DNA of 64,000 bases, taken from a virus. Its lineage: Duplodnaviria > Caudoviricetes. The stretch lies in IMG/VR virus record IMGVR_UViG_3300033074_001927, positions 1 through 64,000 of that record; one strand, given 5' to 3'. Position numbers and translations under genes: made by a program. The notes under the pieces were generated by a model that had not been told where the DNA came from, did not search any database, and worked only from the letters and a program-made list of their open reading frames with translations. Below, one piece after another: positions 4,390 through 53,435 of this stretch. Positions within the stretch are counted from its first letter, which is position 1. Every line of letters starts with the position of its first letter.

Positions 4390-4397
4390 TTCTTTAT

Positions 4398-4470: not shown

Positions 4471-4485
4471 TAGGAGATTTGTGAC

Positions 4486-4650: not shown

Positions 4651-4726
4651 CGGGCGATGGACTAATTGGATAAGTCTCCTGTTTTGGAAACAGGACATCA
4701 TGTGGGTTCGAGTCCCACTCGCCCGA
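4651..4726 (+). tRNA. tRNA-Pro (anticodon TGG), no encoded CCA
   Basis: Acceptor CGGGCGA/TCGCCCG+A73, D arm GACT..AGTC, anticodon arm CCTGT-TTTGGAA-ACAGG, T arm GTGGG-TTCGAGT-CCCAC. Confidence 0.92.
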
Positions 4727-19594: not shown

Positions 19595-20041
19595 TTACCA
19601 GCCGAGCATAAGAACGTAAGCCCTCTCTAGCGCAAGCCTAATGAGTTCTAACTCGTCAGAACTAACAGGTATGGAAATGACTTCTGATTTGCTGCCCTCC
19701 TTCATGGAGGCCGTAAGGTACAGGCCACCTGGTTGCCACTTAAATTTAATTATCTTATTGCCTTTTTCGTTTTTATGAAAAAGCTCAAGGTCTGCCGCCC
19801 CCTCTTTTGGCTCTGGAAGGCGCCCATAAAGCAGGGCAAGTATTTTGCCTATATCTGTGTGCCCAAGCTTTATTCTAATGCCATTTGCCCAATCATATGG
19901 CTTAGAACTATTCATTGGCGCATTTTGCTTGGCCATTTCTAAAAACACGCAGTCTTTATTTGACCCAAGCTTTAATTGAGCTACCGAGCCGCCAGATTCT
20001 TTTTTTGGCTTGTATATTCCGACAAAATCTCTTTTACTCAT
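19595..20041 (-). CDS. Whirly-like ssDNA-binding protein
   Basis: IYK, FLEMA, YDW...I.IKL..TDIGKI..L, ELFH, ISIPVSSDE, terminal MLGW match the plant Whirly domain as I recall it; ATG 20041 overlaps upstream stop (track start 20050). Confidence 0.7.
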   Translation of the reverse strand: MSKRDFVGIYKPKKESGGSVAQLKLGSNKDCVFLEMAKQNAPMNSSKPYDWANGIRIKLGHTDIGKILALLYGRLPEPKEGAADLELFHKNEKGNKIIKFKWQPGGLYLTASMKEGSKSEVISIPVSSDELELIRLALERAYVLMLGW

Positions 20042-20267
20042 ATTCGGCAACCTTTATAATTTTTTCCTTTACGCAAGAGCAGCGAGCCCTTGTTGATTTT
20101 CCACCAACTGGATGATATGTTACGATGCCTACTCCACTACATGTTTTACATGACCTTTTGGCCCTATATGTTGGCCTGTCAACCATTTTTATTTTTTTTC
20201 CACCCATTTGCTCGGAAGCTGAAATAATGTGCGCTTTACGCTCATCTTCGTTAATAAATATACTCAT
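20034..20267 (-). CDS. Small zinc-finger protein
   Basis: AKRSCKTCSGVG...RCSCV. Confidence 0.7.
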   Translation of the reverse strand: MSIFINEDERKAHIISASEQMGGKKIKMVDRPTYRAKRSCKTCSGVGIVTYHPVGGKSTRARCSCVKEKIIKVAEYE

Positions 20268-20917
20268 TTAGATTTCTCAGCCTTTATTTTCTTTGCAAGC
20301 AGCGCATTCATTTTTGACATAAGCTCCCTTCCTTCTAGTCTCGTAAAATCATCCACCCTGGCAACATCTCTAGGTATATCTAACAATGATATAATTTCTG
20401 TCTTACCGATTGCAAGTTTTGTCGCCATGTTGCGAATCAATACAACCTGATGTGGCTCTATAGGAGCGGTATCTTCTACTTGAAGAATGCGCGCATCCGC
20501 ATCACTTTTCTCTTCAACAGAACACATGCTTATTCCAAACGCCGTCCTTAGTGCTCGAGCCTTACTACGACTTTCTGCCATTGCAGTAGTATATAATTTG
20601 AAATTTCCATCACAATTATCTATGGTGGCATCAGCACTGCCCTCGTATTGGCAACCATCCACAAATTCATACCTGTATGTGCAATACATTCCTCGAGGAA
20701 GAGGTTCAAGCCTAACACAAATGGCAGCCTTAACACCCCGCTCCTTGGCGAGCCTTTCGAGTCCTCTTAGAAAAACAAACTGTTTGCCATCTTCTGTTTT
20801 TATTTCTTCTGGAAGCAAATCCTTACTATAGTCTTTTTTTATATCAAATATGACAGGATGGGGCCCTAAATGCTCAATTTTTCCCATATATCTAACTTTC
20901 TCCATCTTTAAAACCAA
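20264..20917 (-). CDS. Rad52/Sak-like single-strand annealing protein
   Basis: GLERLAKERG, YEGSADA...N, AMAESRSKARALRTAFGI.MCSVEE; helical C-terminal extension. Confidence 0.65.
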   Translation of the reverse strand: MVLKMEKVRYMGKIEHLGPHPVIFDIKKDYSKDLLPEEIKTEDGKQFVFLRGLERLAKERGVKAAICVRLEPLPRGMYCTYRYEFVDGCQYEGSADATIDNCDGNFKLYTTAMAESRSKARALRTAFGISMCSVEEKSDADARILQVEDTAPIEPHQVVLIRNMATKLAIGKTEIISLLDIPRDVARVDDFTRLEGRELMSKMNALLAKKIKAEKSK

Positions 20918-21527
20918 TCAAATCTCGAATATCTCCATGTATACAGAGTGGATTGGCTACATCAAGTTCTTTATCATTACCAAGAGCGTGCCAATCTCCG
21001 TATTGGCGACGGGCAAATAACTCTATTTTTCTCAACCCTCCGTCAGGAGGTGTAACTATTTTGTCTATTTTGCTATACAAAATGTCCGGCTTTCTACTAT
21101 GGCTAGTTCTCTCCGCCTCAAACTCTTGTTCTTCATTGTTTGTATAATGTTTTGGCCTCCCTCTTTTGCCAACCAATACTATTTCAGTAGATCCTTGGGC
21201 TCCACATGAGCGAGAAAAGTTTTTTGCCTTTTTACCGTTTACAGTGCGCTTACACCATACAAATGCGCACGTTCTATACTTAAATCCCCACTCTTCCATA
21301 ATTTCTATGCATTCAGGAAGGCGCGCCCATACGGCCCACATGAATAGCCAGCAATCTTTATTTGCTATACTACTTATGTGCAACCTTTTGCCTTCTTCTA
21401 TGGTCAACAAATCATATTGATCTTTTGCCTCATATTTCTTTTTCTTGCTATATATATTGACTTCAAATGGCCAAGGATAATCGGCCAATATAACATCGAA
21501 TTTGCCTAACTCTTTTGCAGTTCCCAT
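20892..21527 (-). CDS. MT-A70-family adenine methyltransferase
   Basis: FDVILADYPW, LFMW, WGFKY.T..FVW.K, TE..LVG.RG, HSRKP, IELFAR. Confidence 0.88.
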   Translation of the reverse strand: MGTAKELGKFDVILADYPWPFEVNIYSKKKKYEAKDQYDLLTIEEGKRLHISSIANKDCWLFMWAVWARLPECIEIMEEWGFKYRTCAFVWCKRTVNGKKAKNFSRSCGAQGSTEIVLVGKRGRPKHYTNNEEQEFEAERTSHSRKPDILYSKIDKIVTPPDGGLRKIELFARRQYGDWHALGNDKELDVANPLCIHGDIRDLIGFKDGES

Positions 21528-22084
21528 GTTCCACCGTGAGCTCCGTCTATTAGCGCGTCTATATAATCTGCCATATGCCCAATGAACGCTTCCATTGTAG
21601 CTGGCGATACGTTACTACCCCATTCTCTTCTTCCGTGATGACTAACTACTATGTGCAAAATATGGTCCATTTTAGACTTATCAACACCCATAGCAACGAG
21701 CGCTTCTCTTGCTATTGCAAAAGACATCGGAATATGATGATGTAACCTTCCGGCCTCTGTATGTCTAAAAAAAGATCCGTTTACATCTTCGTATGAATTT
21801 ATTTTGCCCAAATCCTGAAATATGCAGCCAGCTACAAGAACATCTCTGTCTATTTGTACATGCGGATAGTTGTCCGCTATTGCAAGAGCCATTTTGGTTA
21901 GACCGATGGTGTGCCTGGCCAAACCACCTCTCTCTATGTGATGTTTTGTAGCTCCTCCACATTGATTAAAAAAGCCTATGGCATACTCTTCTTCTATACC
22001 ATTTATTGCATAACGCACTGCTTCTCTGATATTTTTATCTTCTATTTTATTAACTAGCTGCCAAAATTCTTCAACCACCACCAT
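21506..22084 (-). CDS. HD-domain protein (YhaM-like HD domain; HD dyad reads QD)
   Basis: HH...GGLARHT, DRDVL.AG..FQDLGK..SY, HIVVSHHG..EWGS..P.T.EA...H.AD..DA. Confidence 0.8.
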   Translation of the reverse strand: MVVVEEFWQLVNKIEDKNIREAVRYAINGIEEEYAIGFFNQCGGATKHHIERGGLARHTIGLTKMALAIADNYPHVQIDRDVLVAGCIFQDLGKINSYEDVNGSFFRHTEAGRLHHHIPMSFAIAREALVAMGVDKSKMDHILHIVVSHHGRREWGSNVSPATMEAFIGHMADYIDALIDGAHGGTWELQKS

Positions 22085-22286
22085 CCTCCTCTAACCTTGC
22101 GCATGTAGATATGGCTCTATTTAAGATAATATCCATATCGTGCAAAAAGTCTGCATAACTATTTGCGTCAATTACAACATTTCCTTTTGAATTTTTTAGG
22201 TCAACAATTGGCCTATATTCTGATACAATGTAGGCCATTTCCATTATTACTTGATCCAGATCTATAATTATCTTCACTAGAAGCAC
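22071..22286 (-). CDS. Hypothetical protein
   Basis: Fills gap; start possibly GTG 22277. Confidence 0.55.
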   Translation of the reverse strand: MLLVKIIIDLDQVIMEMAYIVSEYRPIVDLKNSKGNVVIDANSYADFLHDMDIILNRAISTCARLEEDGGG

Positions 22287-23050
22287 TCTATAATAAATAG
22301 GCCTGGACCCTTATTATCCTCAATAAGCCTAACTATATTTTCAACCGTCCTTCTGACAAATGCCATAGAAGACGTTGTTGACATATCTCTACATCTTATT
22401 AGCGTCCAGCCAGATCCTACTAAGATAGAATTTTTCTTCTCATCCTTTTCCATTACTTTTGCCAAATTTTCTTCACCATATATTGGCAAAAAATGCGTTG
22501 CCCCATCCCATTCTATAGCAACCCTTTCTGAAGGTAAGCAAATATCAATCTCAAACACTCTTCCTGGCGTATATTCGTTTGTTCTCTGCTCTACAACATA
22601 ACCAATGGATGATAGCATATCGGCTACGGCATTCTCATTCTTGCTACCATCTTTGGCTTTTGCCGTATTTGCTGCATGCATTTTGCGTATTATCTCTGCC
22701 TTGTCCTTGTCCGACATTGAAGACCATTTTTCTTTTGCAACAGATGCCAAGGTGTCTTTTCTGTCTTGAACCTCCTCCTCTGTTAGCTTATCCCAAAATG
22801 TCTGCAGCCCCTTAGAGATACGCAGCTTTTCCTCATCTGTTCTGTGTCGCCCCTGGGTTGGTGTTCCATTTCTTTCTATATTTATTTTTTGTGCTGTACC
22901 CTTGTCTCTAAGCGGGATGCCATTTCTTTTTAGCTCCCTTCTTATCGTCATTGGGAAAACGCCATGCTCTTTGGCTATATCGCTAGTGCTGCGACGCTTC
23001 TCCACAAATTCAACTTCAAGATATCTCGGGTCTTTCCATATAGCAGACAT
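22277..23050 (-). CDS. Free-standing homing-endonuclease-like protein (HTH/NUMOD3 plus Vsr/DUF559-like nuclease)
   Basis: STSDIAKEHGV...TIRR HTH, GRHRTDEEKLRIS NUMOD3-like, FEIDI...VAIEWDG..HF, GWTLIR. Confidence 0.75.
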   Translation of the reverse strand: MSAIWKDPRYLEVEFVEKRRSTSDIAKEHGVFPMTIRRELKRNGIPLRDKGTAQKINIERNGTPTQGRHRTDEEKLRISKGLQTFWDKLTEEEVQDRKDTLASVAKEKWSSMSDKDKAEIIRKMHAANTAKAKDGSKNENAVADMLSSIGYVVEQRTNEYTPGRVFEIDICLPSERVAIEWDGATHFLPIYGEENLAKVMEKDEKKNSILVGSGWTLIRCRDMSTTSSMAFVRRTVENIVRLIEDNKGPGLFIIECF

Positions 23051-24075: not shown

Positions 24076-25047
24076 CTACGACGCATTTTTGTGTCTTTTT
24101 ATGTCAGCGTCAACCATTGAATTTACCAAGTCTACAAAACTATATTGCGGAGACCATGATAGAGTATTTTTTGCCTTTGTCGCATTTCCGCATAACGTAG
24201 TCACATCATTTGGCCTAGAAAACCTTTCGTCGTAAGTAACATATTGACGCCAATCAAGCCCAACCCTCGAAAACGCTATTGACAAAAATTCCCTTATTGT
24301 GTGCTTTTCTCCAGTAGCAACAACATAGTCATCTGGACAGGTATGGGAAAGCATTGCCGCCATAGCCTCGCAATAGTCTGCCGCATGGCCCCAATCTCGC
24401 TCACTGTCCAGATTACCAAGCGCTATTGAAGCGGCCTTTCCGCTTGCTATTCTTGCAACCCCGTCCGTTATTTTACGGGTCACAAACTCGAGGCCGCGCC
24501 TTTCTGATTCGTGGTTGAACAATATGCCATTACAGGCAAACATGCCATAAGACTCTCTATATATTTTTGTACAATGAAACCCAAAGCACTTTGCTGCAGC
24601 ATATGGAGATATTGGATTAAATGGCGTCTTTTCTGACTGTATCGGCTCTAGCACCCTGCCAAACATTTCAGAAGAAGCCGCATTATAAAACTTTGTGTCT
24701 GGCTTTGTATCTCTTAACGCCTCTAGGCATACAAGCGTGGCAAGGCCGGTTGCGTTTGACGTATGTATCGGCTCTGACCATGAAACTCCAACGAACGACT
24801 GTGCGGCCAAATGATAGAATTCATCAGGAGAGTGCGACTGTATCAACCTGCGCATATTTCCACTATCTGTAACATCTCCAAATTCTAAAATAAAGTTTTT
24901 ATTATCACGAAGATGCTCGATTCTCCAATTGTCTGGACTTCCGCTTCTCCTAGCGACTCCAATAACTTTATATCCGCGCGCAAGAAGTATGTCAGAGAGA
25001 TAAGAGCCGTCCTGGCCCCTAACTCCTGTTATAATTGCTGTTTTCAT
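24076..25047 (-). CDS. gmd: GDP-mannose 4,6-dehydratase
   Basis: AIITGVRGQDGSYL, YHLAAQSFV, SSEMFG, SPYAAAK, GILFNHES.RRG.EFVTRKI, LGNLDSERDWGHA. Confidence 0.96.
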   Translation of the reverse strand: MKTAIITGVRGQDGSYLSDILLARGYKVIGVARRSGSPDNWRIEHLRDNKNFILEFGDVTDSGNMRRLIQSHSPDEFYHLAAQSFVGVSWSEPIHTSNATGLATLVCLEALRDTKPDTKFYNAASSEMFGRVLEPIQSEKTPFNPISPYAAAKCFGFHCTKIYRESYGMFACNGILFNHESERRGLEFVTRKITDGVARIASGKAASIALGNLDSERDWGHAADYCEAMAAMLSHTCPDDYVVATGEKHTIREFLSIAFSRVGLDWRQYVTYDERFSRPNDVTTLCGNATKAKNTLSWSPQYSFVDLVNSMVDADIKRHKNAS

Positions 25048-25363
25048 TTTTCCAACCACCTATTTGGTCAAAATCCTTAATATCTCCACTATACTCATAC
25101 ACGTACGCCATTCCCGCAAATAGCCCCTGCCTATTGTAGGCCCTGACAATCTTTCTATTAAAAAGATGTGGACAGCCCTCATACCTGTCTAAATATTCAA
25201 GATCTTCTCCTGTTACTTTTGTTAGTTGTCCCCATATCTTGTCCCTATATCCTCCGGTCTTTGCTCCAGGAAACCACGAAGATACCTGGTATAGACGTCC
25301 ATAAATATAAAAATCATCAGTAACATGGTCTTTTTTAAGCGTTCCGTAAACAAACAGATTCAT
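25019..25363 (-). CDS. Gamma-glutamylcyclotransferase (AIG2/GGCT-like)
   Basis: LFVYGTLK, FPG, LDRYEG.P.LF.R, AYVY. Confidence 0.88.
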   Translation of the reverse strand: MNLFVYGTLKKDHVTDDFYIYGRLYQVSSWFPGAKTGGYRDKIWGQLTKVTGEDLEYLDRYEGCPHLFNRKIVRAYNRQGLFAGMAYVYEYSGDIKDFDQIGGWKNENSNYNRS

Positions 25364-26124
25364 TATGAGCCCTCACAAATAGACAGCATGTCTCTATATA
25401 GTAACCTTAGTCTTGATATAGAATTGTTTTGTAAAGCCTCCTCTAGGCGAGCCAATTCTTCTTTAGCATAAAACTCTATTCTCTGACTTAGTACAACGTA
25501 ATTATTTATTAATTCTTTAAGAATATTGTTGCCGCCACCTCTTCTAGATTCCCTTAAGAGAGAGTAGTGAAACACGTTTCCTTTATCAAATATTTTTATA
25601 TCGTCTTTTACGTAAGCGCAATTTACCGGACTTATGTCTAGGTCTATATATCCAATATCAAGTAGCCACAATTTATGCTTAAAATGCACAATAGCGCACT
25701 CTTTTTGCATTTCTGTATTTTGAAATGGCTTAGACGTGATTGGTTCATCAACCATATCCACATCAGATAGGATGCCAAGACAGTTTGTAGTATATGGACT
25801 TAAACTAGCTATCCTGTATCTTATTGTTGCAGATCTTGCAACATCATATCCCCTGCACCAAATCTTTTTTATAAAACCACTTGTTGTGCATGAATTTAGA
25901 TCATCTGACTTTCTTACATATAGAAATGATTTATCCCCCCTTATTGGGCCGAAGAAGTATTCCTCCATTGGGGGCAAGCAGCCAACAACAGATACTATTC
26001 CAGTTGGCAAAATAAATGATGCTAGTTTTTTTGCAAAAAGCGATTCTGGTACAGACGCGTCTACACTTCTATCTGCCTCCCAGTAAGTCCTTTCAGAGAT
26101 GGGACTATAGTCAAATAAGCGCAT
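25363..26124 (-). CDS. Hypothetical protein
   Basis: 253 aa, TAATG coupling to GGCT; no recognised motif. Confidence 0.7.
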   Translation of the reverse strand: MRLFDYSPISERTYWEADRSVDASVPESLFAKKLASFILPTGIVSVVGCLPPMEEYFFGPIRGDKSFLYVRKSDDLNSCTTSGFIKKIWCRGYDVARSATIRYRIASLSPYTTNCLGILSDVDMVDEPITSKPFQNTEMQKECAIVHFKHKLWLLDIGYIDLDISPVNCAYVKDDIKIFDKGNVFHYSLLRESRRGGGNNILKELINNYVVLSQRIEFYAKEELARLEEALQNNSISRLRLLYRDMLSICEGS

Positions 26125-26190
26125 ATATCAAGAAAAACGCTAGTAGAAAGATAAATATTATCAAATCTGTTTTATAGCAAGAATTGCACA

Positions 26191-27051
26191 TCATTTTTTT
26201 ACAATATCCCGCATTACTTTTTGCCATTTTTTGTCTGCTCCATCCACCTTTATACCACCAGGCAGCACGGCTATGCCGCCTTTTATTGCAACATCATAAG
26301 AGGTCCACGCACTGCCGTCATTTCTGACCCAAACAAGCGACACGCCATGAACCCAATCTGTTGGGTTATGCGCCATGTATAGCGGCTGTAGTTTTGACAA
26401 ACATCCTGGACTCCAGGCCTGTAGCCGCCTTGAAGTTATTGGATCCTTTGCCGTATACATCTGCGCCCTGTGAGTATGGCCGTGCACTACGCTGTATGAC
26501 CTTGCCAACGCTAAATGGTTTGCGGCGGCATGTCTAGCAAAAGACCATCCATGTATGGCTATTAAATCTCTAGCTATTTTGTAGTGTGGAAGCGGGGCTC
26601 CTGGTTTTGGAACATAATCAATATATGTCCATTTTACTTTTCTGTCCTCTGACAGGAGACGTTTAGGCGAAACAAGTTCGGCTATTCCGGCCCCAAGGTG
26701 GCCAAGATCAACAACAGACCTCTCCACTCTATGTTCGTGATTTCCTGCCAAATATGCAATCTCGCCGGTATTTGTTTCGCAAAAATTCAATAGTCGCGTC
26801 ATTGGCACTATTTCTCCGCGAAAGTATGATGCCGCCCTGTCCTCTAGAAGAGATCCCTTTGGGTGCCTAGAAAACGACTCACAGTCAAGTCCATCTCCTA
26901 AGAAAACTGTCTTTTCTGGCTTTAGTGCATCATGAATCGCCATTGCACATCCAACAGCCCTATTGTCTTGATGTGGGAAGTGAATGTCTGGCCAAACCAT
27001 GACAAGGTGCGAGCCATCCCTCGGCGCCGGTATTACTTGTTTCTTGGGCAT
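26191..27051 (-). CDS. Calcineurin-like metallophosphoesterase
   Basis: PDIHFP, LGDGLD, GNHE, IHG, HGHTH. Confidence 0.9.
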   Translation of the reverse strand: MPKKQVIPAPRDGSHLVMVWPDIHFPHQDNRAVGCAMAIHDALKPEKTVFLGDGLDCESFSRHPKGSLLEDRAASYFRGEIVPMTRLLNFCETNTGEIAYLAGNHEHRVERSVVDLGHLGAGIAELVSPKRLLSEDRKVKWTYIDYVPKPGAPLPHYKIARDLIAIHGWSFARHAAANHLALARSYSVVHGHTHRAQMYTAKDPITSRRLQAWSPGCLSKLQPLYMAHNPTDWVHGVSLVWVRNDGSAWTSYDVAIKGGIAVLPGGIKVDGADKKWQKVMRDIVKK

Positions 27052-27633
27052 TTAAAACTCCATAGAATGTTTTGTTTTACAATGAAAGAACATTGCCCTT
27101 TCGCCATATTCCGTCTTAGTACTTAATATATGATAAAACTTAGACAACTTTTCTTTCCACCAGAGCAAAGGCTTTTGCGTGAGATGAAGCTCTACACCAT
27201 CTAGGATGTCAGAATGGTTTGATATTGCAAACAAATAGTGCACACCTAGCTTAGACAAAACTTCCAAAACCCCGTCTATTTTAGCCTCCTCGATGTGTTC
27301 TAGCACGTCTAGGCACGTCACATAGCTATAATAACCAACATCTTTTTTAATTTCTTCTGCTACTTGTGAAAATTTTTCCATATTTGCGATGTCGCAATTA
27401 ATGTGCCTTATTGGTAAATTGTGAAAATTTTCAAGATCCATAGCGGTTGTGTCAGCAAAAAGAGATGCCAGTTTAATAAAGCTTCCTCTTCCAGATCCAA
27501 CATCTAATAGAGATGTTTTGTGATTAGTTTTTGCTATTTTTGAAATAGCCCAAGCATATCTTGGCTCTGAGGCGGGATGTATGTTGTAGTCGCTTCTTGC
27601 AAACATCTTGCTGTATACGGCCGCATAGTCCAT
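27052..27633 (-). CDS. Class I SAM-dependent methyltransferase (possible glycan O-methyltransferase)
   Basis: LLDVGSGRG, VTCLDVLEHI, LHLT.KP..WW. Confidence 0.85.
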   Translation of the reverse strand: MDYAAVYSKMFARSDYNIHPASEPRYAWAISKIAKTNHKTSLLDVGSGRGSFIKLASLFADTTAMDLENFHNLPIRHINCDIANMEKFSQVAEEIKKDVGYYSYVTCLDVLEHIEEAKIDGVLEVLSKLGVHYLFAISNHSDILDGVELHLTQKPLLWWKEKLSKFYHILSTKTEYGERAMFFHCKTKHSMEF

Positions 27634-28802
27634 TAGAATAGCGCCCTTCTACTAAATATTCTATAATTAACAAAGTCTATAGAATCATCTGCAGAATCCT
27701 CAAACCTTTTTACCATATCATCTACAATTTTCTTGCCGGCCTGTCCGTCCCCAAGCAATAACTTGTTGTAAGACCCAATATTATCCATTACAAATTTTGC
27801 TGCGTTATAAACGTTTTTATCATTTGCACACAACACACTAATGTTTGTATCTAGTGTTTCCGGCCTTTCGGTGGACGTTCGTAATACAACGCATGGAATG
27901 CCGGCAATTGCCGCAACCTCCTGGTTTGTTCCACTATCTGTAAACTCCATTGAAGCACCAAGTTCAAGATTTATGAAATCAAAAAAACCAAGCGGATCTA
28001 TAGGTAAAATATTTGATGGATATTTTATCTTGAAAGCCTTAAGTCTTGGCATCTGTATTAGAATGCAAGGAATCCCTATCTTTTTACAAGCGTCTGAAAC
28101 AGCAAAAATTAGAGATCTTGCCCTCTCAACATTCATGTTTTCATCTCTATGAAGCGTCATTATTGCATAGTTGTCTGGCCTAACGCCATACCTAAAACAG
28201 GTAGAGTCAACTAGCCCAAACCTGTTCATATGTATTTCGTCATCATCTAGAACTGATGGGAATTCCTCCGCCAACACATCAACTATTGTATTACCCACCA
28301 CTGATATCTTATAAGGATCTGTACCTTCTAATATAAGGTTATCTTTGTAGTTCTGATGATAGCAATAAAGAATGGAGCTTATCCTATCTATTATTGTCCT
28401 GTTTTTTTCTTCTGGCATACGCATGTCGTACGATCTCATGCCGGCTTCTATATGTATGACTGGTATATTTATCTTAAACGGAGCTATTGAGCCAATGACA
28501 GCGTTTGCGTCTCCTAGAAAGCACGTATAGTCTGGCCTGTCTTTTACCAAGACATCCTCTAGCTGCGCTATCAATTTTGCATGCTGTTCTCCATGAGATG
28601 AGCCAGTTGCAGATAGCGTAATGTCCGGTTCTGGAAGCTCGAGTTCATCAAAAAATACCGACATTAGGTTTTTGTCATAATGCTGGCCGGTATGAATAAC
28701 TCTGCACTGCAATTCTGGTCTAGTAAAAGCCTCCTTAAGAACCTGCTTCATCCTTATAAAGTCTGGCCTAATTCCAACTATAAAGTCTATTTTGTGCGCC
28801 AT
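27633..28802 (-). CDS. Non-hydrolysing UDP-N-acetylhexosamine 2-epimerase (WecB/WbjD/QnlB-like)
   Basis: VGIRPDFIR, HTGQHYD, LGDAN, HIEAGMRS.D..MPEE.NR, TLHR.EN, TDSGT.QE, TERPE. Confidence 0.9.
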   Translation of the reverse strand: MAHKIDFIVGIRPDFIRMKQVLKEAFTRPELQCRVIHTGQHYDKNLMSVFFDELELPEPDITLSATGSSHGEQHAKLIAQLEDVLVKDRPDYTCFLGDANAVIGSIAPFKINIPVIHIEAGMRSYDMRMPEEKNRTIIDRISSILYCYHQNYKDNLILEGTDPYKISVVGNTIVDVLAEEFPSVLDDDEIHMNRFGLVDSTCFRYGVRPDNYAIMTLHRDENMNVERARSLIFAVSDACKKIGIPCILIQMPRLKAFKIKYPSNILPIDPLGFFDFINLELGASMEFTDSGTNQEVAAIAGIPCVVLRTSTERPETLDTNISVLCANDKNVYNAAKFVMDNIGSYNKLLLGDGQAGKKIVDDMVKRFEDSADDSIDFVNYRIFSRRALF

Positions 28803-29632
28803 ACAGGTGTCCACCAAGCCATTTCTCTTATCATTTGTTCGTGTGATGGTATGCCCAGCTTTGAATTAAGGTCTTTTACCGTTGAAAGCGTTCTGTCTAC
28901 ATAATCTTTTGCATTACATCTTTTTACAATTAGTCCAAGATTGTAGGCATTAGATATTTGCTGCACAAGGTCAGCCTTAGTTATCGGCGGGCCAAAAACG
29001 TGATACAACTCATTCTTGTACCAGTCGTTTTTAATTATCTTTCCTATTGATTTGGCCAGTTCAAGCGTTGTAATTCCAGACCATTTATGATTAATGAAGC
29101 CATTAACCTCTTTGCCTTTGTTTGATATAGCCCATTCAACTAATGATCTTTTTTTACCATGAATCTCTGGGCCTATAATACTGGTCCTTAGAACCATGCA
29201 GTTTTCTGGCTCACCAAGCGCCTTACTCATCCCATAAAGGTCTGTAGCATCCTTATGTGAAGTTTCGGCATAATTGCCGGAATGGCCAGTAAAGCAACAG
29301 TCAGAAGAAATGTGTATAAGCCTTGTATTTTTGTGTTTTTCGCAATGATTAGCCAATCTTCTGGGATAGACCGCATTTGTATATACAGCATCTGCTATAC
29401 CATCTGAATCAGAAGAATTAAATATTGGCTTAATCGCGCCAATACAGTTGATTATATAGTCAAACTTACTACCAACAACCGTCCACCACCACGTCTCACT
29501 AACCGCATGTCCAACCATTGCGCCGTTGCTTCTGTTAAAGCCGCGAACCTCTATGTTGTCAACTAGTGACAAATAGTCGTATACCATATGGCCTAGCATA
29601 CCAGTATCGCCAAGTACCGCAACCTTTATCAT
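28787..29632 (-). CDS. RmlD-family NDP-4-keto-sugar reductase (WbvR/QnlA-like)
   Basis: VLGDTGMLG, IINCIG, IHISSDC, DLYGMSKALGE, LRTSIIGPE, SLVEW, WSGITT.ELA. Confidence 0.88.
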   Translation of the reverse strand: MIKVAVLGDTGMLGHMVYDYLSLVDNIEVRGFNRSNGAMVGHAVSETWWWTVVGSKFDYIINCIGAIKPIFNSSDSDGIADAVYTNAVYPRRLANHCEKHKNTRLIHISSDCCFTGHSGNYAETSHKDATDLYGMSKALGEPENCMVLRTSIIGPEIHGKKRSLVEWAISNKGKEVNGFINHKWSGITTLELAKSIGKIIKNDWYKNELYHVFGPPITKADLVQQISNAYNLGLIVKRCNAKDYVDRTLSTVKDLNSKLGIPSHEQMIREMAWWTPVWRTK

Positions 29633-30069
29633 CTACGCCTCACTATCCAAATATCATCGTGAACAGAAGCATCTAGTCTTGCATCATCTTCTTTTACGGC
29701 ACTAAAGCTTAGTGTTGACATAAACAGTAATTTTGTATTATCTTCTAAACTCATTGCGCCATTATAGTAGCCTGGCGGAATATGTAAAACTTTAGGAGTT
29801 CTTGCAGATAGGGAGAAACATATTGGCTTCTCTAATGTATTTACGTTAGGTGCATATTTTAACGCCGCAACCTTTGCTGCGCCCGACAAAACTTGTACGT
29901 ATGTCGAGCCAGTCTTGTGGAGGTGCCATGCCCTAACTGTTCCTCTGGAGAAATTTTCAACCACATACAAGCGCTTTATTCCTAATTTATCAATGTCGTC
30001 CATTACGCAGTGGACATAGCCCCTGTCGTCGGTATATAGCTGACATTCCAGCAAACTAGGCAAGCTCAT
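29629..30069 (-). CDS. RmlC-like cupin (NDP-sugar 3,5-epimerase-like)
   Basis: DDRG, IKRLY.V.N, GTVRAWHLH, VLHIPPGYYNG. Confidence 0.85.
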   Translation of the reverse strand: MSLPSLLECQLYTDDRGYVHCVMDDIDKLGIKRLYVVENFSRGTVRAWHLHKTGSTYVQVLSGAAKVAALKYAPNVNTLEKPICFSLSARTPKVLHIPPGYYNGAMSLEDNTKLLFMSTLSFSAVKEDDARLDASVHDDIWIVRRR

Positions 30070-31039
30070 CTATCACCATCTTAAGATACCTTTCGTTATG
30101 ATAAGCGGGGCTTGACAAGTCGCTTATGCGGCCAGAAGAAAAGACATCCCTCATCTCCACTAGTGCCGCAGAAAAGTCACTCCTTACAATAAGCCCGGCC
30201 TCGATGGCCTTTTTGTTTATAACCTTGTAATTTCTCAAATCTTCTGTAGGCATATCCTGCTCTATCAAGTTTGATTTTTTATCTCCCAAAATTTCTATTG
30301 CCAAATCCTTCAATTTATAGTTCTTGTCGCTTATAATAAAAGTGCCGTTTGCATTGCCGAGTAGCGCCGACAAAGCAGCCGCTTCCCCCGCCATATTTAC
30401 AGACACCATCGGTCTCCACTGATCTCCGCCAAAAACAGAACAAGAATCTTTCTTAATTGCGTCTATTGTCATTTTGTTAGCAACAAGATCAGTTCTTATT
30501 CTTCCAAAAGGCCCAGACATTCCGCCTATCGTTCCAAATCTTAGTATAGTGTGCTTATATGGCAGCTTTTCTCTTATATAGCGCTCAACTTCTAACTTTG
30601 TTTCTGCATAGAGGCTTATTGGTGTTGTTGCACTATCCTCATCCAGATAGTCTTGACTATATCCATAAACAGAACATGTTGAAGCGAAGACGAGCCTTGA
30701 CCTCGAGCTCTTGCACCAATCAACAATGAACTTCGAGCCATATACATTAATGTCTCTGGTTAAAAATTCGTCAACATTGCAAGCGCCATCTCCTACTATG
30801 GCCGCCAAATGAATGATGACGTCTGGACGAAGATCTTCTAAAAGAAGCTCAAAGTCATAACTGCGTATGTCTACATTTTTAAAAAATATATTAGGAGGCA
30901 AATAGTTTTGTCCATAAAGAAGCCTGTCAACACCATGTATTGCAGAACCAAGGCGCGGATTCCTACGAATTAGTTCGCCTACTACAGCATCCCCGATATA
31001 GCCGGCAACACCAGTTATCAGGATTTTTTTAGGCGCCAT
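30056..31039 (-). CDS. NAD-dependent epimerase/dehydratase (extended SDR)
   Basis: ILITGVAGYIG, IHLAAIVGD.AC, FASTCSVYG, LYAETK, R.DLV.N, GG.QWRP. Confidence 0.9.
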   Translation of the reverse strand: MAPKKILITGVAGYIGDAVVGELIRRNPRLGSAIHGVDRLLYGQNYLPPNIFFKNVDIRSYDFELLLEDLRPDVIIHLAAIVGDGACNVDEFLTRDINVYGSKFIVDWCKSSRSRLVFASTCSVYGYSQDYLDEDSATTPISLYAETKLEVERYIREKLPYKHTILRFGTIGGMSGPFGRIRTDLVANKMTIDAIKKDSCSVFGGDQWRPMVSVNMAGEAAALSALLGNANGTFIISDKNYKLKDLAIEILGDKKSNLIEQDMPTEDLRNYKVINKKAIEAGLIVRSDFSAALVEMRDVFSSGRISDLSSPAYHNERYLKMVIDELA

Positions 31040-31197
31040 AAAGTTTTTCTCCACCAAAAAGTATCAATAAGATGTTTTTTGTCTTTGCCGGCATTGACTA
31101 TTTTAACCGGACCAGAACAGTAGCAAACAGTCTCTGTGATTGGCATTATTTCTTCACATCTTGCACATTGCTTACAGAAGATGTCTTCTGAATGCAT
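31018..31197 (-). CDS. Small Cys-rich protein, 59 aa, not in ORF track
   Basis: MHSEDIFCKQCARCEEIMPITETVCYCSGP...; fills the gap. Confidence 0.5.
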   Translation of the reverse strand: MHSEDIFCKQCARCEEIMPITETVCYCSGPVKIVNAGKDKKHLIDTFWWRKTLWRLKKS

Positions 31198-31933
31198 ATA
31201 ACGTTACTCCAATACATGTAATGATTGACAAAATCAACAAAGTATTTTTCTTTTTATCCACAATATAGGTATCAGCTCCAACAAAATCTCTTATTGTTTT
31301 TGCGCTAACAGATTCTGACCAGGACGGAACAATTGTGCCTCTGTCAACCCTGACCCTTGTATTTATTCCTATGAGTAGATTGTTTGAAGCCAAAAATAGC
31401 CCGCCACCACTGTTTCCAAAATATATTGGTGTAGACGTTCTTATAAAATCGCTCTGACTTAGGCTTAGCACGCCAGAGACTATGTGTGATGGAAACTCGC
31501 TGGCAGGAAAGCCGACACCAAATACCGGATCTCCAAACCTCATTCTCTTTAGATCTTTTTCTGTAGCCAATCTAGCGCTGCTTTTTAACTTTTTTCCTTT
31601 TGCGTATAGTATTGCTATGTCTGGCAGTTCAAATGCGCCATATCTTACAACCGTCGCGTCAACGTCTTCACCATTATATAGCTTTAAAACTACATCTTTT
31701 TCTGCATCAGATATTACGCCATCTCTGTTGACATCGACTACATGCATATTTGTTAGCACATATCCGGTATCTAAAATAACTCCACTTCCGTATATTGAAT
31801 ACTCTTCCACATCCTCTCTCCATACCTTTACCGCACACACGGAGTGCACAACATCTGTTGGCGATGGCCTAACATGCACAAGAACAAGTAATGAGAATAG
31901 TATAGCGAAAATTGCTAGCCTCCTATGTTTCAT
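31172..31933 (-). CDS. Membrane-anchored trypsin-like serine protease
   Basis: GSGVI...YVLTNMHVV (His), DIAIL (Asp), GNSGGGLF (Ser); N-terminal signal/TM and C-terminal TM; start MKHRR (track 31990). Confidence 0.88.
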   Translation of the reverse strand: MKHRRLAIFAILFSLLVLVHVRPSPTDVVHSVCAVKVWREDVEEYSIYGSGVILDTGYVLTNMHVVDVNRDGVISDAEKDVVLKLYNGEDVDATVVRYGAFELPDIAILYAKGKKLKSSARLATEKDLKRMRFGDPVFGVGFPASEFPSHIVSGVLSLSQSDFIRTSTPIYFGNSGGGLFLASNNLLIGINTRVRVDRGTIVPSWSESVSAKTIRDFVGADTYIVDKKKNTLLILSIITCIGVTLYAFRRHLL

Positions 31934-37230: not shown

Positions 37231-37231
37231 T

Positions 37232-40018: not shown

Positions 40019-40390
40019 CTAAATGTTATCGCTATCTTTTCTTGTAGCCCTTATTAAAACATCAAAGGCAAAAGCTCTTCTATCTCCTGCCACGCTAGAG
40101 TCGCCATTCCTATACTTGTGGTAATCTATGTAGATGTCTTTTGACAGTGACACAACCCCGGCCCCACCGCCATGAAGCCTTGCCATCTCTTCTATTATTT
40201 CATTCCTTGCGCAAGCTCTTGCATAGCCATAAAAATTCTTTTTATTAGAACCAGATGCGTAAGCCTTGAGCAGACCTAAATACGCGGCCTGACGACAGTC
40301 ATCAAGGAGGTATGGCGGCACCCTTTTTAAGAGTGCCGCCACAATCCTGTGGTCTTCTGTTGACAGGTCGTCTTTAGAATGGAAGGTCAT
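40019..40390 (-). CDS. Sigma-70 region-2-like protein (no region 4)
   Basis: DDCRQAAYLGLLKAY...FYGYARACARNEIIE matches region 2.2-2.4 pattern; probable start 40390 (track 40501). Confidence 0.6.
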   Translation of the reverse strand: MTFHSKDDLSTEDHRIVAALLKRVPPYLLDDCRQAAYLGLLKAYASGSNKKNFYGYARACARNEIIEEMARLHGGGAGVVSLSKDIYIDYHKYRNGDSSVAGDRRAFAFDVLIRATRKDSDNI

Positions 40391-41267
40391 AAGACTGGCT
40401 ATCATCTCCAGCCGGATTTGGCCTTCTGCCCTTTTGTTTCTGCGGACCACCATCTCTTGCGTCGGTGTCTGCATTCTTCTTGTCGGCAGAATGAACAACA
40501 ACTTCTTGCAGTTTTACCTGAATGCGACTAGTCTTTTTACCAGTCTCTTTATCTGTCCACTCCCTTGATTCGAGACCACCTCTTACCGTAAGCGGCGTTC
40601 CCTTTGTAACTGATCTTTCTAGTCGCTCAGCAAGGTGTCCCCAAGCATCGCAATCAATAAAGAGCGGAACTTCAACCCATTCATCTCCCTTTTTATATGA
40701 CCTATTGACCGCAATGCGAACAGTTGCAACCTTGTTTTCTCCGAACTCTTTTACGACCGGATCTGAAACAGCCCGTCCAGCACCAACCCACTGATTTAAA
40801 CTCATATACAACTCCATGCCATCGACTTCAATGAGCCTTAAGAAATCCTCAAACAATCCAACACTAATTGACTTTAATATGAATTTATTAAGCAAATAAA
40901 GATTATTGTCAACGTAATCTCTATAGAGAGTAGACAAATTTTCTTTTGCCAATAAATCAACGGCCAAGTCAAACACAACACCGTTTATATTGTTACATTT
41001 TGAGTCTATTAAGATAATATTTGTTAAATCACAGTCGTCCAAACTAAGCAAAGTTTTTATTTCTTCTTCTACTAAAACTGTTGCAGCCAGCAATGTTGTT
41101 TTTACCGGCCTGCCATAAGGCAGTGTTAAAATCCCATTATTAAACGACCACTTTAAAGACTCTCCATTGAAAGAAAAATATACAACGCCATTGTCGGTAT
41201 CGCAGCATACTATATTTTTAGATTTTTTTTCTTTATATCTACCAAGTATCGCTTCTATATCATGCAT
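40374..41267 (-). CDS. ssb: Single-stranded DNA-binding protein (domain 40374-40805) with in-frame N-terminal 154-aa extension
   Basis: MSLNQ...GR...DP, V..VRIAVNR, FIDCDAWG..AE, KG..L.V.G.L..R.W.D, acidic tail YDLPF; internal GGAG SD before ATG 40805. Confidence 0.88.
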   Translation of the reverse strand: MHDIEAILGRYKEKKSKNIVCCDTDNGVVYFSFNGESLKWSFNNGILTLPYGRPVKTTLLAATVLVEEEIKTLLSLDDCDLTNIILIDSKCNNINGVVFDLAVDLLAKENLSTLYRDYVDNNLYLLNKFILKSISVGLFEDFLRLIEVDGMELYMSLNQWVGAGRAVSDPVVKEFGENKVATVRIAVNRSYKKGDEWVEVPLFIDCDAWGHLAERLERSVTKGTPLTVRGGLESREWTDKETGKKTSRIQVKLQEVVVHSADKKNADTDARDGGPQKQKGRRPNPAGDDSQSYDLPF

Positions 41268-44494: not shown

Positions 44495-46367
44495 CTAGTC
44501 CATTCCTCTTATTAAAGTCTTTTTCAATCAAGGCTAGCACGTCAAGAGTCTTAAGACCAAGAACGTCGGCTTTCAGGTATCCCATCTTGTCCATCGTGTT
44601 GCCATCCCATTCAGTAATCAATTCTTTTTTCTTTGCATCCCATCTAAGTGGTACCGATCCTGTAGAGAAGTCTTCATCGCTTATAATTATGCCGGCAGCA
44701 TGTTTTCCAGAGCTTTTTGGACATCCTTCTAGCTTTTTCGCTATACTGAACAGATCTGGATTTTTGTTTTCATATTCCTTTAGTTTTTCACTTCTATCTA
44801 CGGCATCCTGTAGATTCTTTGGCTTATCTGGAACTAGCCGAGTCATTACGTTGGCGTCTGCGTGTGGCATACCTCTCTTTCCAAGAACCTTTGATGTATC
44901 CTTAAGTGCAGCCTTTGGTTTTAGGCCATTAAACGTGACCATTTGCGCAACTCTGTTTTCACCAAACCTTCTTTTTATATATGCAACAACCTCATCTCGC
45001 CTATCCATAGAAAAATCCATGTCTATGTCGGCCAAAGATCCAGCACGACCAACATTGTAGAATCTTTCCCAAATTAGTCCATACTTCATTGGATCTATTT
45101 TTGTTATGCCTAAGCAGTAAGAAACAAGACTTCCGGCAGCACTGCCACGACCAGGACCAGACGGTATCCCCTTTGATTTTGCCCAAGCAACAATATCCCA
45201 TACTATGAGGAAGTAATCTGCAAGTCTAGCAAACTTTATGTCACCGAGCTCTTTCGCTATTCTTTCCCTGTGTTCTGCTGGTGCGTCAAACACGTCTATT
45301 CCATAGATTTTCTTATATCCATCATGGACTAGTTGAACTAAATAATTAAACGAAGTAAGATCCTCTACTGTTCCTTCTGCCTGCTCTTGATGGTGTGTAC
45401 AAGAATCTTTTGTTGCACATCCAAGACTATATTCTGGAACAAATTCATACTTCGGCAAATGCATTTTATTTTCTATCTTAACGTCTCCTATGCGATCGGC
45501 GATTTCTAGTGTAATATCTAGTTCTTGCTCAGTAAGAGTTGTCTTTCTCTTCTCTCCACCTTCTGTTGTAAGCTCCTCTTTGAGGATGTGCTCAAAATCC
45601 TTCAACCAATATTCTCTTGTTGAATAGTATGGTCTAAATTCCTTACCTTTCCCATATCCTATTGGCGTATCAAGACTGTGTTTTGTTCTAATTGCCCACA
45701 ATGCTTCATGAGCTACGACGTCGTTTCTATCTATGTAATGAGCATCCTGACATCCCACGACCTTTATGTCTAACGATTTACCTAGCGCCCTCATTGCAGA
45801 ATTGATCCCTGGCTGTATGTTTAGCCCGCCATCCTGGGTTTCAAGATACAGCCTATCTCCAAATATAGATTGGAGTATTTTAGCATGCCTTGCCGCTTCG
45901 TCATATTTCTCTATTGAGAGATTATATGGAACAATGCCCTTAAGGCATGCCGTCAAGCAAATAAGTCCATTGCCATGCTCTTTAAGATCGTTATAATCTA
46001 TTCGAGGATTGAAATAGAATTTTTCATTTGCCTTTGTGTTAAGAAGCTTTATGTTGGTCCATCCCTCATCATTCATTGCCATCAGTATTAGGTGGTATGG
46101 ATTACGTTTTTCTTCTCCTGCGGCCGCCAATCTTTTGTGCTCTGCAGCATCTGGAACCATATAAAATTCAGAAGCAAGTATTGGCTTAATCCCCTTCTTT
46201 TTGCAAGCGTTGTAAAATTCAGGAACCCCAGCTATTGTTCCATGATCTGTTAATGCAGCCGCCTTGTGACCATATTGAGAAAGTCTGTCAACTATCTCAT
46301 CTATTTTTGACACGGCATCAAGTATAGAAAAGCTTGAATGCATATGTAGGTGCGCCATTTTACTCAT
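44481..46367 (-). CDS. dnaE: DNA polymerase III alpha subunit, N-terminal part (PHP plus palm/thumb)
   Basis: HLHMHSSFSILD, TDHG, HLILMA, DAHY, GPGRGSAAGSLV.Y.LGIT.IDP, ADIDMDF, HAAG, LKADVLGL. Confidence 0.96.
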   Translation of the reverse strand: MSKMAHLHMHSSFSILDAVSKIDEIVDRLSQYGHKAAALTDHGTIAGVPEFYNACKKKGIKPILASEFYMVPDAAEHKRLAAAGEEKRNPYHLILMAMNDEGWTNIKLLNTKANEKFYFNPRIDYNDLKEHGNGLICLTACLKGIVPYNLSIEKYDEAARHAKILQSIFGDRLYLETQDGGLNIQPGINSAMRALGKSLDIKVVGCQDAHYIDRNDVVAHEALWAIRTKHSLDTPIGYGKGKEFRPYYSTREYWLKDFEHILKEELTTEGGEKRKTTLTEQELDITLEIADRIGDVKIENKMHLPKYEFVPEYSLGCATKDSCTHHQEQAEGTVEDLTSFNYLVQLVHDGYKKIYGIDVFDAPAEHRERIAKELGDIKFARLADYFLIVWDIVAWAKSKGIPSGPGRGSAAGSLVSYCLGITKIDPMKYGLIWERFYNVGRAGSLADIDMDFSMDRRDEVVAYIKRRFGENRVAQMVTFNGLKPKAALKDTSKVLGKRGMPHADANVMTRLVPDKPKNLQDAVDRSEKLKEYENKNPDLFSIAKKLEGCPKSSGKHAAGIIISDEDFSTGSVPLRWDAKKKELITEWDGNTMDKMGYLKADVLGLKTLDVLALIEKDFNKRNGLDEQE

Positions 46368-47286
46368 TTTCTTCTATCGCCTTTTCTTCTGCAGTTACTG
46401 GCGGCGGCATAATAAACCTGCCACCATCATCTACGTAATTGTTCCTAATTTTGCCACACTCTTCATATCCTACGCAAAATCTACATAGCCAACTTTTATT
46501 CCTTGACGGATTCGTGTCCTCTAGTATTTTTTTGTAAGCTCTAATTAAAAATTCTCTAGTGTCTGCGTCTTGCTTTGGCCCAAACGCAACTGAAACTGGA
46601 GAGTATTTTAGATAATCAAGTGTCATGATAGCATATTTGTATTGAGGAAATATTGACTTAACTATAAGACTATATATCCTCATTTGCAAATCTACTTTTG
46701 CTTCATCCTCGTTTTTGCTTCGACCAGTCTTGTAATCTATTACTTCGACAGTCTCTTCATCTATTTCAATAATTAGATCTATAAATCCAACAGCCTTAAA
46801 TCCTTCTATTTCAAAATCAAATGGAACCTCTGCTCCAACAATTTTTTTACTAAGCGGACTGTCTTCTCTATATATGGCATACTTGACAAGCTTAAGGTCT
46901 TCTTCAAAATTTGGCCTTGGACATCCATCAAATGACTTTATATCTCTTTTTGCTATAGAGCATATTGTTTCTTTGCCGGCACTTACGGCCCATTTACATC
47001 CATTGCAGCTCTTTTCTACAGGATGTATGTATCCGGCCTTTCTATCGTCGGCTTCCCAAACCTTGTTATCTGCGTAAAAGTCCTTAAGAACACTCTCGTA
47101 GTCTTCTCCACCTACATGCTTTTCTAAAGCCTCATGCACAGCCGATCCCTTAAGGGCGCTTATTCCGCTCTTATTTAGCTCTGGCAGTTTTAGGTGGTAT
47201 TGCAAAAAATACTTAAATGGACATGCTATATAGGTATTAAGTCTTGATGCACTTAAATAACTTATTTTCATTTCATACTCTTCCAC
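46360..47286 (-). CDS. PD-(D/E)XK nuclease, Cas4/AddB-like
   Basis: LSASRL..Y..CP..Y, G.AVH..LE, GFIDL, VIDYKTG, LQM.IY, C..C.....C. Confidence 0.88.
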   Translation of the reverse strand: MEEYEMKISYLSASRLNTYIACPFKYFLQYHLKLPELNKSGISALKGSAVHEALEKHVGGEDYESVLKDFYADNKVWEADDRKAGYIHPVEKSCNGCKWAVSAGKETICSIAKRDIKSFDGCPRPNFEEDLKLVKYAIYREDSPLSKKIVGAEVPFDFEIEGFKAVGFIDLIIEIDEETVEVIDYKTGRSKNEDEAKVDLQMRIYSLIVKSIFPQYKYAIMTLDYLKYSPVSVAFGPKQDADTREFLIRAYKKILEDTNPSRNKSWLCRFCVGYEECGKIRNNYVDDGGRFIMPPPVTAEEKAIEENE

Positions 47287-52003: not shown

Positions 52004-52425
52004 TGCGCGCTACTCCGCTTGACGCTATTTCTTATACTCATCAACTGGTCTACTACGTTCTTTTCGTCGTACCGTATGATGTTGTATTGAATGTTATTTA
52101 AGTCGCACCACAACTTCTTTTTATTATCTCTTGCTTGAGACATTTTAAAATCTGCGGCATCTTTGTGAAAGAAGCTGCTATAGCCATAGTGTTGCTGGCC
52201 ATGAACCTCTATTGCAATCATCAGTCTTGGCAAGAAAAAGTCTATGTATAAGTTGTCTATAGGTATATAGAATTCTTCAAGAACAATCTCGTTAACAAAA
52301 ACAAGTCCTATAGCCTTTGAAACAGCCTCCTGCAAAAAGCTTTTGTGTTTTCCATCATCTTTTTTATTTTTAGACGGTCGCAGGTTTATAGAATAGGTCT
52401 TTCCTGTAGTCGACACAAACTTCAT
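52000..52425 (-). CDS. DUF559/Vsr-like endonuclease
   Basis: EEF, LYIDFFLP..IAIEVHGQQHY, RD..K..WC..N.I. Confidence 0.78.
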   Translation of the reverse strand: MKFVSTTGKTYSINLRPSKNKKDDGKHKSFLQEAVSKAIGLVFVNEIVLEEFYIPIDNLYIDFFLPRLMIAIEVHGQQHYGYSSFFHKDAADFKMSQARDNKKKLWCDLNNIQYNIIRYDEKNVVDQLMSIRNSVKRSSAQ

Positions 52426-53435
52426 TATATCAGTTCTTTTATCATGCCATTTATGATGGCCCTAAATTCTGCATCTTCTTTTAGCATTTTTACCAATTCT
52501 GCTTCCCTAAACTTTTTATCTCCACCAGGAATTGTATACCATCCGCCGCTATAAGATCCTATAACGCCAACATCAACGGCGAATTCCAACAAATCTAGAT
52601 CTTCGTCTATACCCTTCCCATATACTAGCGGGAATTCTATAGTGACAAATGGTCTATTAACATTGTTTTTTACAACTGTAGCCTTTACCTTCTGGCCATA
52701 CTGCTCTCCTGTTTTTGTGTCTTTCATAGCTCCAGCAGCCAAAGTTTTTAGCTCTATTCTTTGCGCTGCTCTATTTTTAATAGCGTTGCCTCCATGAGTA
52801 GTCGTAGCGCCACCATACGGATTCATTGTAGCCGTGAGATGATTCAAGAAAATAGTCACGCATTTGTTTCTAGAATTTATTCCAGTAAGTTTTCTAACAA
52901 GCTTGTGACACAATCTTGCAACCTCTCCCATACCACTTCTATTGAAGCCCTCAGCATCTTCTGCCTCCGGAAGAAGACCTCCAACAGAGTCAAGTATTAT
53001 AACACATCCAGGACATGATATCATTATGTCATGCATTATGTTTAGAGCCTCTTCTCCATTGTCTGGAAAAATAAGAGTTATTTTACTCTTGTCAAGGCCA
53101 CTAATCATATTCAACTGAGATTCTCTTAGCTTATACTCAAGATCTAAATAAAACACCCTCTTGCCCATCTTAATTGCATGCTTAGCAACATTTAGTGCGA
53201 GTGTTGTTTTGCCAGCCGTTTGCGGCCCATATATTTCTACCATAGAGCCTTCTAAGAAGGGCCTATTAAGGGCCCAATCCAACTTTACCGAACCGGTGGA
53301 TATGGACAAGAGGTCGTCATCCTTAAAATCTGTCCCCTCTTTTACTTTGACTCCCCACTGCTTCTTAAACGCCTCTATATCAAACTCAACAGATGGTTCT
53401 GGTGCGGCGCTGTCTTCTTTTTTTCTTCTACCCAT
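52425..53435 (-). CDS. recA: RecA/UvsX recombinase
   Basis: ISTGS..LD.AL, VEIYGP..AGKTT, YLDLE, ILDSV, VARL, IFLNH, GGNA, VVKN. Confidence 0.94.
   Translation of the reverse strand: MGRRKKEDSAAPEPSVEFDIEAFKKQWGVKVKEGTDFKDDDLLSISTGSVKLDWALNRPFLEGSMVEIYGPQTAGKTTLALNVAKHAIKMGKRVFYLDLEYKLRESQLNMISGLDKSKITLIFPDNGEEALNIMHDIMISCPGCVIILDSVGGLLPEAEDAEGFNRSGMGEVARLCHKLVRKLTGINSRNKCVTIFLNHLTATMNPYGGATTTHGGNAIKNRAAQRIELKTLAAGAMKDTKTGEQYGQKVKATVVKNNVNRPFVTIEFPLVYGKGIDEDLDLLEFAVDVGVIGSYSGGWYTIPGGDKKFREAELVKMLKEDAEFRAIINGMIKELI

Follow-up and report, generated by a model that had tools for sequence, protein, structure and literature searches.

The stretch of viral DNA analysed here (the window) comprises the first 64 kb, positions 1 to 64,000, of the IMG/VR virus record IMGVR_UViG_3300033074_001927, a Caudoviricetes sequence of 118,892 bases with a CheckV completeness of 57%, which belongs to a large tailed phage that is uncultured. 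It carries a small gene whose product, P0001, belongs, by its sequence and its predicted fold, to the Whirly family (PF08536) as a true member. As the initial annotation of this DNA had stated, in agreement with the literature, most descriptions of this family come from plant and algal organelles (PMC9070903, PMC3245945). The gene closes a run of overlapping genes in which a single-strand annealing protein, recognised as such by its modelled fold, is encoded nearby. We propose that P0001 is a tetrameric binder of single-stranded DNA (ssDNA) that would work with the adjacent annealase, and possibly with RecA, in annealing and recombination; we give this reading a probability of about 0.6. The gene is located as follows.

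19595..20041, minus strand: Whirly-family gene P0001, 148 aa, a predicted homotetrameric binder of single-stranded nucleic acid.

The minus strand of this interval holds a single open frame, with 148 codons before its stop. The probable start is the ATG at 20041, since the equivalent Met opens 10 of the 10 close homologues; this ATG overlaps the stop of the open reading frame (ORF) located upstream (ATGAGTAA), and an AAGG lies about 9 nt 5' of it. In the reverse-complement translation, all the motifs on which the Whirly assignment had originally been based are present and in the order claimed, namely IYK, FLEMA, YDW, LGHTDIGKILAL, ELFH, ISIPVSSDE and the terminal MLGW. The claim that the plant KGKAAL motif is replaced also stands: P0001 has IYK-P-K-KESGG-SVAQL instead, and the counterpart of KGKAAL consists of KPK, a hairpin insertion of about 6 residues and then SVAQL. 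The basic residue two positions past K11 is retained in 8 of the 10 close homologues. KGKAAL is a hallmark of higher-plant Whirlies, and its second Lys drives the assembly of 24-mers (PMC3245945). Whirly-like proteins of algae and of the liverwort Marchantia lack it as well (PMC9070903), and therefore the motif defines a land-plant subgroup and not the Pfam family. In the family alignment K11, K58, H89, Y/F49 and W51 are conserved, His89 being invariant in 148/148 members; plant Whirlies have Y/F-D-W, F-H, E130 and the terminal W, among other positions, in common with these members. With a pI of 9.4 P0001 is a basic protein, and it does not end in an acidic tail of the single-stranded DNA-binding protein (SSB) type; such a tail appears in just 2 of the 148 sampled family members. 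It has neither a transit peptide nor a C-terminal extension, and beta1 starts 5 residues after the N-terminus; the absence of an N-terminal targeting extension is what is expected of a phage gene.

The match of P0001 to PF08536 (23.7 bits, E 4.7e-5, profile positions 30-134 of 136) lies just above the curated cut-off of 23 bits and is marginal when taken alone. With the single sequence, a phmmer search of the PDB returned noise only, and matches needed a profile. When the profile was made from 10 metagenomic homologues of P0001 (46-65% identity), six plant Whirly sequences were the sole PDB matches at E up to 10. A profile of 148 members retrieved PBF-2 p24 (E 1.1e-10), StWhy2 (2.2e-10) and AtWHY1-3 (1e-8 to 8e-10) and, more weakly, MRP1 (E 7.6e-5), and nothing else was matched. 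The profile check that the initial annotation had called for thus places P0001 above the PF08536 cut-off and the plant Whirly chains at E values around 1e-10. Individually, 64 of the 148 members match PF08536 (best E 3.3e-21) and 2 touch PF09387, the MRP family, to which P0001 itself gave no match even at E 10. An exhaustive profile search, with clustering at 50% identity, recovered 648 clusters when E values up to 1e-3 were accepted and 223 when the limit was 1e-10; almost all are stand-alone proteins of 140-175 aa. The prokaryotic and viral PF08536 members found in databases are likewise stand-alone, with about 140-175 aa and the signature YKPxKxxxGxAxQF, FLExAxQ, FDW and LFH; compared with them, the P0001 clade is a divergent branch, as its 23.7 bits to the Pfam model indicate. 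Two members, P0079 (327 aa) and P0038 (243 aa), carry N-terminal extensions of about 100-200 residues ahead of the Whirly domain, with no Pfam match, and hence the members of the family are not always stand-alone. A search for longer homologues, confined to the range of 337-2000 aa, returned none, which is weak evidence on fused forms. The virus record has one Whirly-type gene only. No PHROGs family was found for P0001, and tblastn of this protein against 50,697 GenBank phage records matched nothing.

The AlphaFold2 model of P0001 (pLDDT 91.4, pTM 0.85) has the beta4-alpha-beta4-alpha topology of the Whirly fold, with two four-stranded beta-sheets and a helix after each. When four copies were modelled, a tetramer was predicted with an ipSAE of 0.94 in 3 of 3 runs, against 0.31 for the best control, with a contact agreement of at least 84% and a partner pLDDT of at least 90. 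The predicted interface is formed by the helices 61-76 and 127-148. In the calibration of this test the mark was reached by 20 of 30 solved homomers and by 1 of 23 single chains. Because plant Whirly tetramers have already been solved, the result may reflect likeness to them more than independent proof. In the structural comparison, MRP1/2 structures tie with plant Whirly (Z 16.0-16.5, rmsd 2.0 Å, 133 residues), while the identity of P0001 is 17-25% to plant Whirlies and 14% to MRP. By sequence and model, P0001 is structurally MRP-like and not a member of the MRP family. The structural check proposed at the outset, a tetramer prediction and a comparison with plant Whirly structures, has thus given both the fold and the assembly in prediction, and the description of P0001 as a stand-alone phage Whirly is borne out by its sequence and fold, by the predicted tetramer and by the viral context.

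The Whirly gene is the last of an overlapping minus-strand run that begins with an HD-domain protein. The genes that precede it are listed here from the one nearest to Whirly.

20034..20267, minus strand: zinc-ribbon protein of 77 aa (CKTCSGVG ... CSC), with an 8-nt overlap between its stop and the Whirly start.

20264..20917, minus strand: two-domain single-strand annealing protein of 217 aa, with a predicted Rad52/Sak/Mgm101/Redβ-like N-domain at about 25-132 and a three-helix domain resembling the Redβ C-terminal domain at about 148-214.

20892..21527, minus strand: MT-A70 family DNA methyltransferase (PF05063 E 8e-21, phrog_359), overlapping the annealase start.

21506..22084, minus strand: HD-domain protein (phrog_5889), overlapping the MT-A70 start.

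The 217-aa neighbour had no Pfam match and no sequence match in the PDB, and PF04098 (Rad52_Rad22) was not found in the record. Its model (pLDDT 77.8) presents two domains, with a predicted beta-beta-beta-alpha annealing core and a predicted C-terminal helical domain of the Redβ type. This modelled fold identifies it as a single-strand annealing protein of the Redβ/Sak style. The gene order of the cassette is repeated in 5 of the 5 close relatives examined, with the MT-A70 gene syntenic in L003, L005, L006 and the contig of P0008, and the syntenic homologues of the HD-domain gene carry PF01966 HD. The contigs that carry relatives measure 166 and 177 kb. In two distant phage lineages, L010 and L011, the annealase end again overlaps the Whirly start by 8 nt; the annealase match is strong in L010 (hhalign 97.6%, E 4e-12; hmmsearch 3.4e-16) and weaker in L011 (E 7e-5 and 1.7e-4). 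In a third lineage, L013, only the core motif is in common with the annealase. Across the distant phage lineages, then, the annealase is the sole neighbour kept, and the methyltransferase and HD genes are not. The search for related loci with the close-homologue alignment found a single relative in IMG/VR, and GTDB genomes yielded none. A scan for promoters and terminators performed no better than on shuffled sequences, and no operon boundary was derived from it.

The zinc ribbon had no Pfam or PHROG match. A CxxCxGxG...CxC protein is conserved immediately upstream of Whirly in L002, L003, L004 and L006, and four-Cys zinc ribbons of unrelated sequence occupy the same site in L013 and L018; this recurrent zinc ribbon may be a partner of Whirly. 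Small zinc-ribbon ORFs located 5' of Whirly, frequently overlapping it, were observed at 20034-20267 of the window (minus strand), L002:5792-5974, L013:5732-6001 and L018:278-529.

Other genes of the phage bear on which DNA transactions P0001 could serve.

40374..41267, minus strand: OB-fold SSB ending in ...YDLPF (PF00436 E 1.2e-19; OB domain 40500-40796).

46360..47286, minus strand: PD-(D/E)xK (RecB/Cas4-like) nuclease, a candidate end-resection partner (PF12705 E 3e-27).

52425..53435, minus strand: RecA/UvsX-like recombinase (PF00154 E 1.6e-46; phrog_97 UvsX-like).

The record also encodes DnaB, a DnaG-type primase, ThyX and a DnaE polymerase in two genes, and the replisome is, as judged from sequence, bacterial-type and not T7-like. 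Since a canonical OB-fold SSB is present, the Whirly protein would be the second ssDNA binder of the phage and not its only one. The nuclease nearest to the cassette is 26 kb away, and no exonuclease gene adjoins the annealase. Searches for gp32 (PF08804) and YqaJ (PF09588) found neither in the record, which is 57% complete. The OB-fold SSB is listed as an ORF of 297 aa with the SSB domain in approximately its last 150 residues; the unannotated N-terminal half could represent either an extension or a gene of its own, and there is an internal Met before MSLNQW. The split DnaE-type polymerase occupies 41304-42917 and 44481-46367 of the window (minus strand), one part with PHP and the pol3-alpha core and the other with finger, HhH and OB regions, with other ORFs between them.

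From this arrangement the following role can be envisaged for P0001. The protein would form a whirligig homotetramer through its two helices, as predicted, and would bind ssDNA on and between its beta-sheets with little sequence preference, as plant WHY proteins do. It may coat resected or displaced ssDNA, and this coat would control which strands are chosen for pairing by the annealase and the phage RecA. It would work beside the OB-fold SSB and not as its replacement, helping as an accessory ssDNA binder in single-strand annealing, in recombination-dependent replication or in repair. What the analysis has established, from sequence and predicted models, is that P0001 belongs to the family, that the gene order is conserved and that the neighbour has an annealase fold; binding of ssDNA by P0001 and its cooperation with the annealase are what we infer. 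A parallel is found in plants, where Whirlies hold back microhomology-mediated rearrangement (PMC3245945) and stimulate the RecA of the organelles (bioRxiv 10.64898/2026.10.24.761589).

The proposed module can be compared with those of lambda Redβ/Exo and Sak of phage 80alpha (PDB 8tfu, 6m9k, 8pq8), in which a single-strand annealing protein is accompanied by an OB-fold SSB of the host or the phage. Like Redβ, the 217-aa neighbour has an annealing N-domain and a small C-domain, which in Redβ binds lambda Exo and the C-terminal peptide of SSB, and as in those modules the gene of an ssDNA binder adjoins the annealase. However, here the binder has a Whirly fold instead of OB and no acidic tail, a zinc-ribbon gene lies between the two, and no exonuclease gene adjoins them. 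One point weighs against the proposed cooperation: a Redβ-like C-domain is expected to grasp an acidic SSB tail, and it is the OB-fold SSB that has such a tail, while the Whirly protein has none. A contact between Whirly and annealase would therefore need another surface, perhaps through the zinc ribbon. A second point is that the bacterial and archaeal members (L019, L012) are stand-alone, with no annealase gene alongside, which would suit better a general DNA-coating function.

Such a function is one of the explanations that have to be weighed: P0001 could be a DNA-coating, nucleoid-remodelling or transcription-modulating protein, or a counter-defence shield for ssDNA intermediates, and not a dedicated recombination factor. 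Whirlies of plants were initially reported as transcription factors and also compact nucleoids (PMC9070903), and the MT-A70 methyltransferase and HD protein of the cassette, together with the restriction-endonuclease-like genes nearby, could mean a DNA-protection theme. Against this, it is the annealase that persists next to Whirly in distant phage lineages, where the methyltransferase and HD genes are not kept, and no defence or anti-defence family was identified, in an analysis that did not include PADLOC; we consider this explanation improbable. That P0001 is the main replicative SSB, in place of the OB-fold protein, is very improbable. A canonical OB-fold SSB with the ...YDLPF tip is located inside the replication block, the tail is missing from P0001 as from nearly all sampled members, and some 20 kb separate the Whirly gene from those of the polymerase, helicase and primase. 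The idea of a Whirly protein serving as the sole or replicative SSB of this phage was thus rejected, being largely refuted by the canonical SSB.

It could also be thought that P0001 is chiefly an RNA-binding protein and that its adjacency to the annealase is incidental. Its models would be the guide-RNA matchmakers MRP1/MRP2 of Trypanosoma (PDB 2gia, 2gje; PF09387), an RNA-annealing heterotetramer of two paralogues, or ChmC (PhiPA3 gp61), an mRNA-handling protein of the nucleus-forming jumbo phages (Chimalliviridae). As we mentioned, MRP1/2 equal plant Whirly in the structural comparison, the family profile reaches MRP1 and two members touch PF09387. ChmC is, like P0001 in prediction, a phage-encoded Whirly-fold homotetramer acting on single-stranded nucleic acid, and it binds ssRNA more tightly than ssDNA (PMC11077065); RNA is also bound by plant WHY1 (PMC3245945). 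Nevertheless, both identity (17-25% against 14%) and profile scores (E 1e-10 against 7.6e-5) favour the ssDNA-binding plant Whirlies over MRP, and in several lineages the Whirly gene is translationally coupled to a DNA-annealing module. With regard to ChmC, the published description sets P0001 apart: ChmC resembles no known protein detectably in sequence, is built of beta3-alpha repeats and has a long disordered C-terminal region rich in N/G and S/D/E (PMC11077065), whereas P0001 matches PF08536 by sequence, is built of beta4-alpha repeats, ends at the domain boundary with no disordered tail and has DNA-recombination neighbours. Moreover, the top BFVD matches of P0001 included no ChmC-like protein. 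Taking these points together, we regard a chiefly RNA-binding function as unlikely and prefer the role in annealing and recombination.

The closest known system is the plant organellar Whirly (StWhy1, that is PBF-2 p24, StWhy2 and AtWHY1/2/3; PF08536; PDB 1l3a, 3n1h, 4koo, 4kop, 4koq), from which P0001 differs in its lack of a transit peptide and of N- and C-terminal extensions, its 17-25% identity, its KPK and hairpin in place of KGKAAL, and its origin from a phage gene that shares an operon with those of an annealase and a zinc ribbon. The initial annotation had considered a phage Whirly relevant to the origin of the organellar proteins, on the ground that organelles owe other replication proteins to phages. 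Twinkle and the RNA polymerase of organelles go back to a replisome of the T-odd type. For Whirly, this link found no specific support, because the family has spread among cellular genomes, the P0001 clade is distant from plants and the replisome is not T7-like. P0024 (L019) is encoded in an ordinary bacterial chromosome, with purF-like, M48 peptidase, type II secretion system ATPase and exosortase genes nearby. P0100 is found in the metagenome-assembled genome of a DPANN archaeon (L012:6001-6501), alongside genes for TFIIB, ribosomal protein S8e and RNase HII. Of 201 genomes sampled from that DPANN phylum, 24 have one above-threshold chromosomal copy of PF08536 (L014-L017 included, loci for which the flanks extend just ~1.5 kb). 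The names given by NCBI to two archaeal members are Candidatus Norongarragalinales and Micrarchaeota. In the ESM Atlas the nearest clusters belong to Verrucomicrobiota and Uroviricota.

Scores to the Pfam model, which was built on plants, were 76 bits for P0149, 56 for P0024, 41-48 for the archaeal and other members and 23.7 for P0001. With other prokaryotic and viral members at 40-76 bits, the P0001 phage clade is therefore, by sequence score, among the least plant-like of those scored. P0149 (L018:529-1047) is the most plant-like non-plant Whirly seen, covering PF08536 positions 1-134 with the N-terminus VYKGSGVA and no hairpin insertion. It is located on a 2.5-kb contig of tightly packed small genes on the same strand, right after the four-Cys zinc-ribbon ORF, a compact gene array of prokaryotic or viral style; a homologue search from P0149 toward plant sequences returned P0149 alone. 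In a phylogeny this protein would serve well as a bridging sequence. A wider scenario can be imagined, in which Whirly is an ancient ssDNA-binding family of prokaryotes and viruses and the native partner of Rad52-type annealases. The phage cassette would then be ancestral to the plant organelle toolkit of Whirly, RAD52-like ODB1 and RecA, with the plant gene coming from a phage or from a phage-bearing bacterium. Plants do have a RAD52-like protein, ODB1. We hold this scenario to be unlikely.

Some further features of the window should be recorded. A long block of minus-strand genes at 24076-40005 contains nucleotide-sugar enzymes (GDP-mannose 4,6-dehydratase, 24076-25059) and glycosyltransferases (for example 38368-40005), and in the distant loci L010, L011 and L013 the annealase-Whirly pair likewise has glycosyltransferases upstream of it. 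Two genes for homing/HNH-like or REase_MTES_1575-like endonucleases are located on the minus strand, one at 22277-23050, syntenic upstream of the HD gene, and the other at 52000-52425, between RecA and the DnaB-side genes. On the plus strand there are a tRNA-Gln(TTG) at 4397-4471 and a tRNA-Pro(TGG) at 4651-4726.

Whirly-fold proteins in phages are already known from ChmC, and automatic PF08536 labels have been placed on proteins of uncultured phages, such as UniProt A0A6J5NR37 ("Whirly transcription factor [uncultured Caudovirales phage]"), the IMG name of P0005 and Atlas clusters. Plant reviews and papers of 2024-2026 call Whirly plant-specific or plant-unique (PMC9070903, PMC11712025, bioRxiv 10.64898/2026.10.24.761589), and our literature search returned no paper on phage, bacterial or archaeal PF08536 proteins or on their pairing with an annealase. 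What is new here is the recurrent annealase-Whirly context, undescribed in the papers found, for a member of a known family. For the question of how Whirly diverts repair from microhomology-mediated rearrangement, the phage cassette, together with RecA and the canonical SSB, offers a simple, expressible system in which the effects of a Whirly tetramer on annealing and strand exchange can be studied. The phage, bacterial and DPANN archaeal sequences provide non-plant material for rooting the Whirly phylogeny. Finally, a non-OB-fold ssDNA binder would be added to the repertoire of phage recombination modules, which may matter for the design of recombineering tools.
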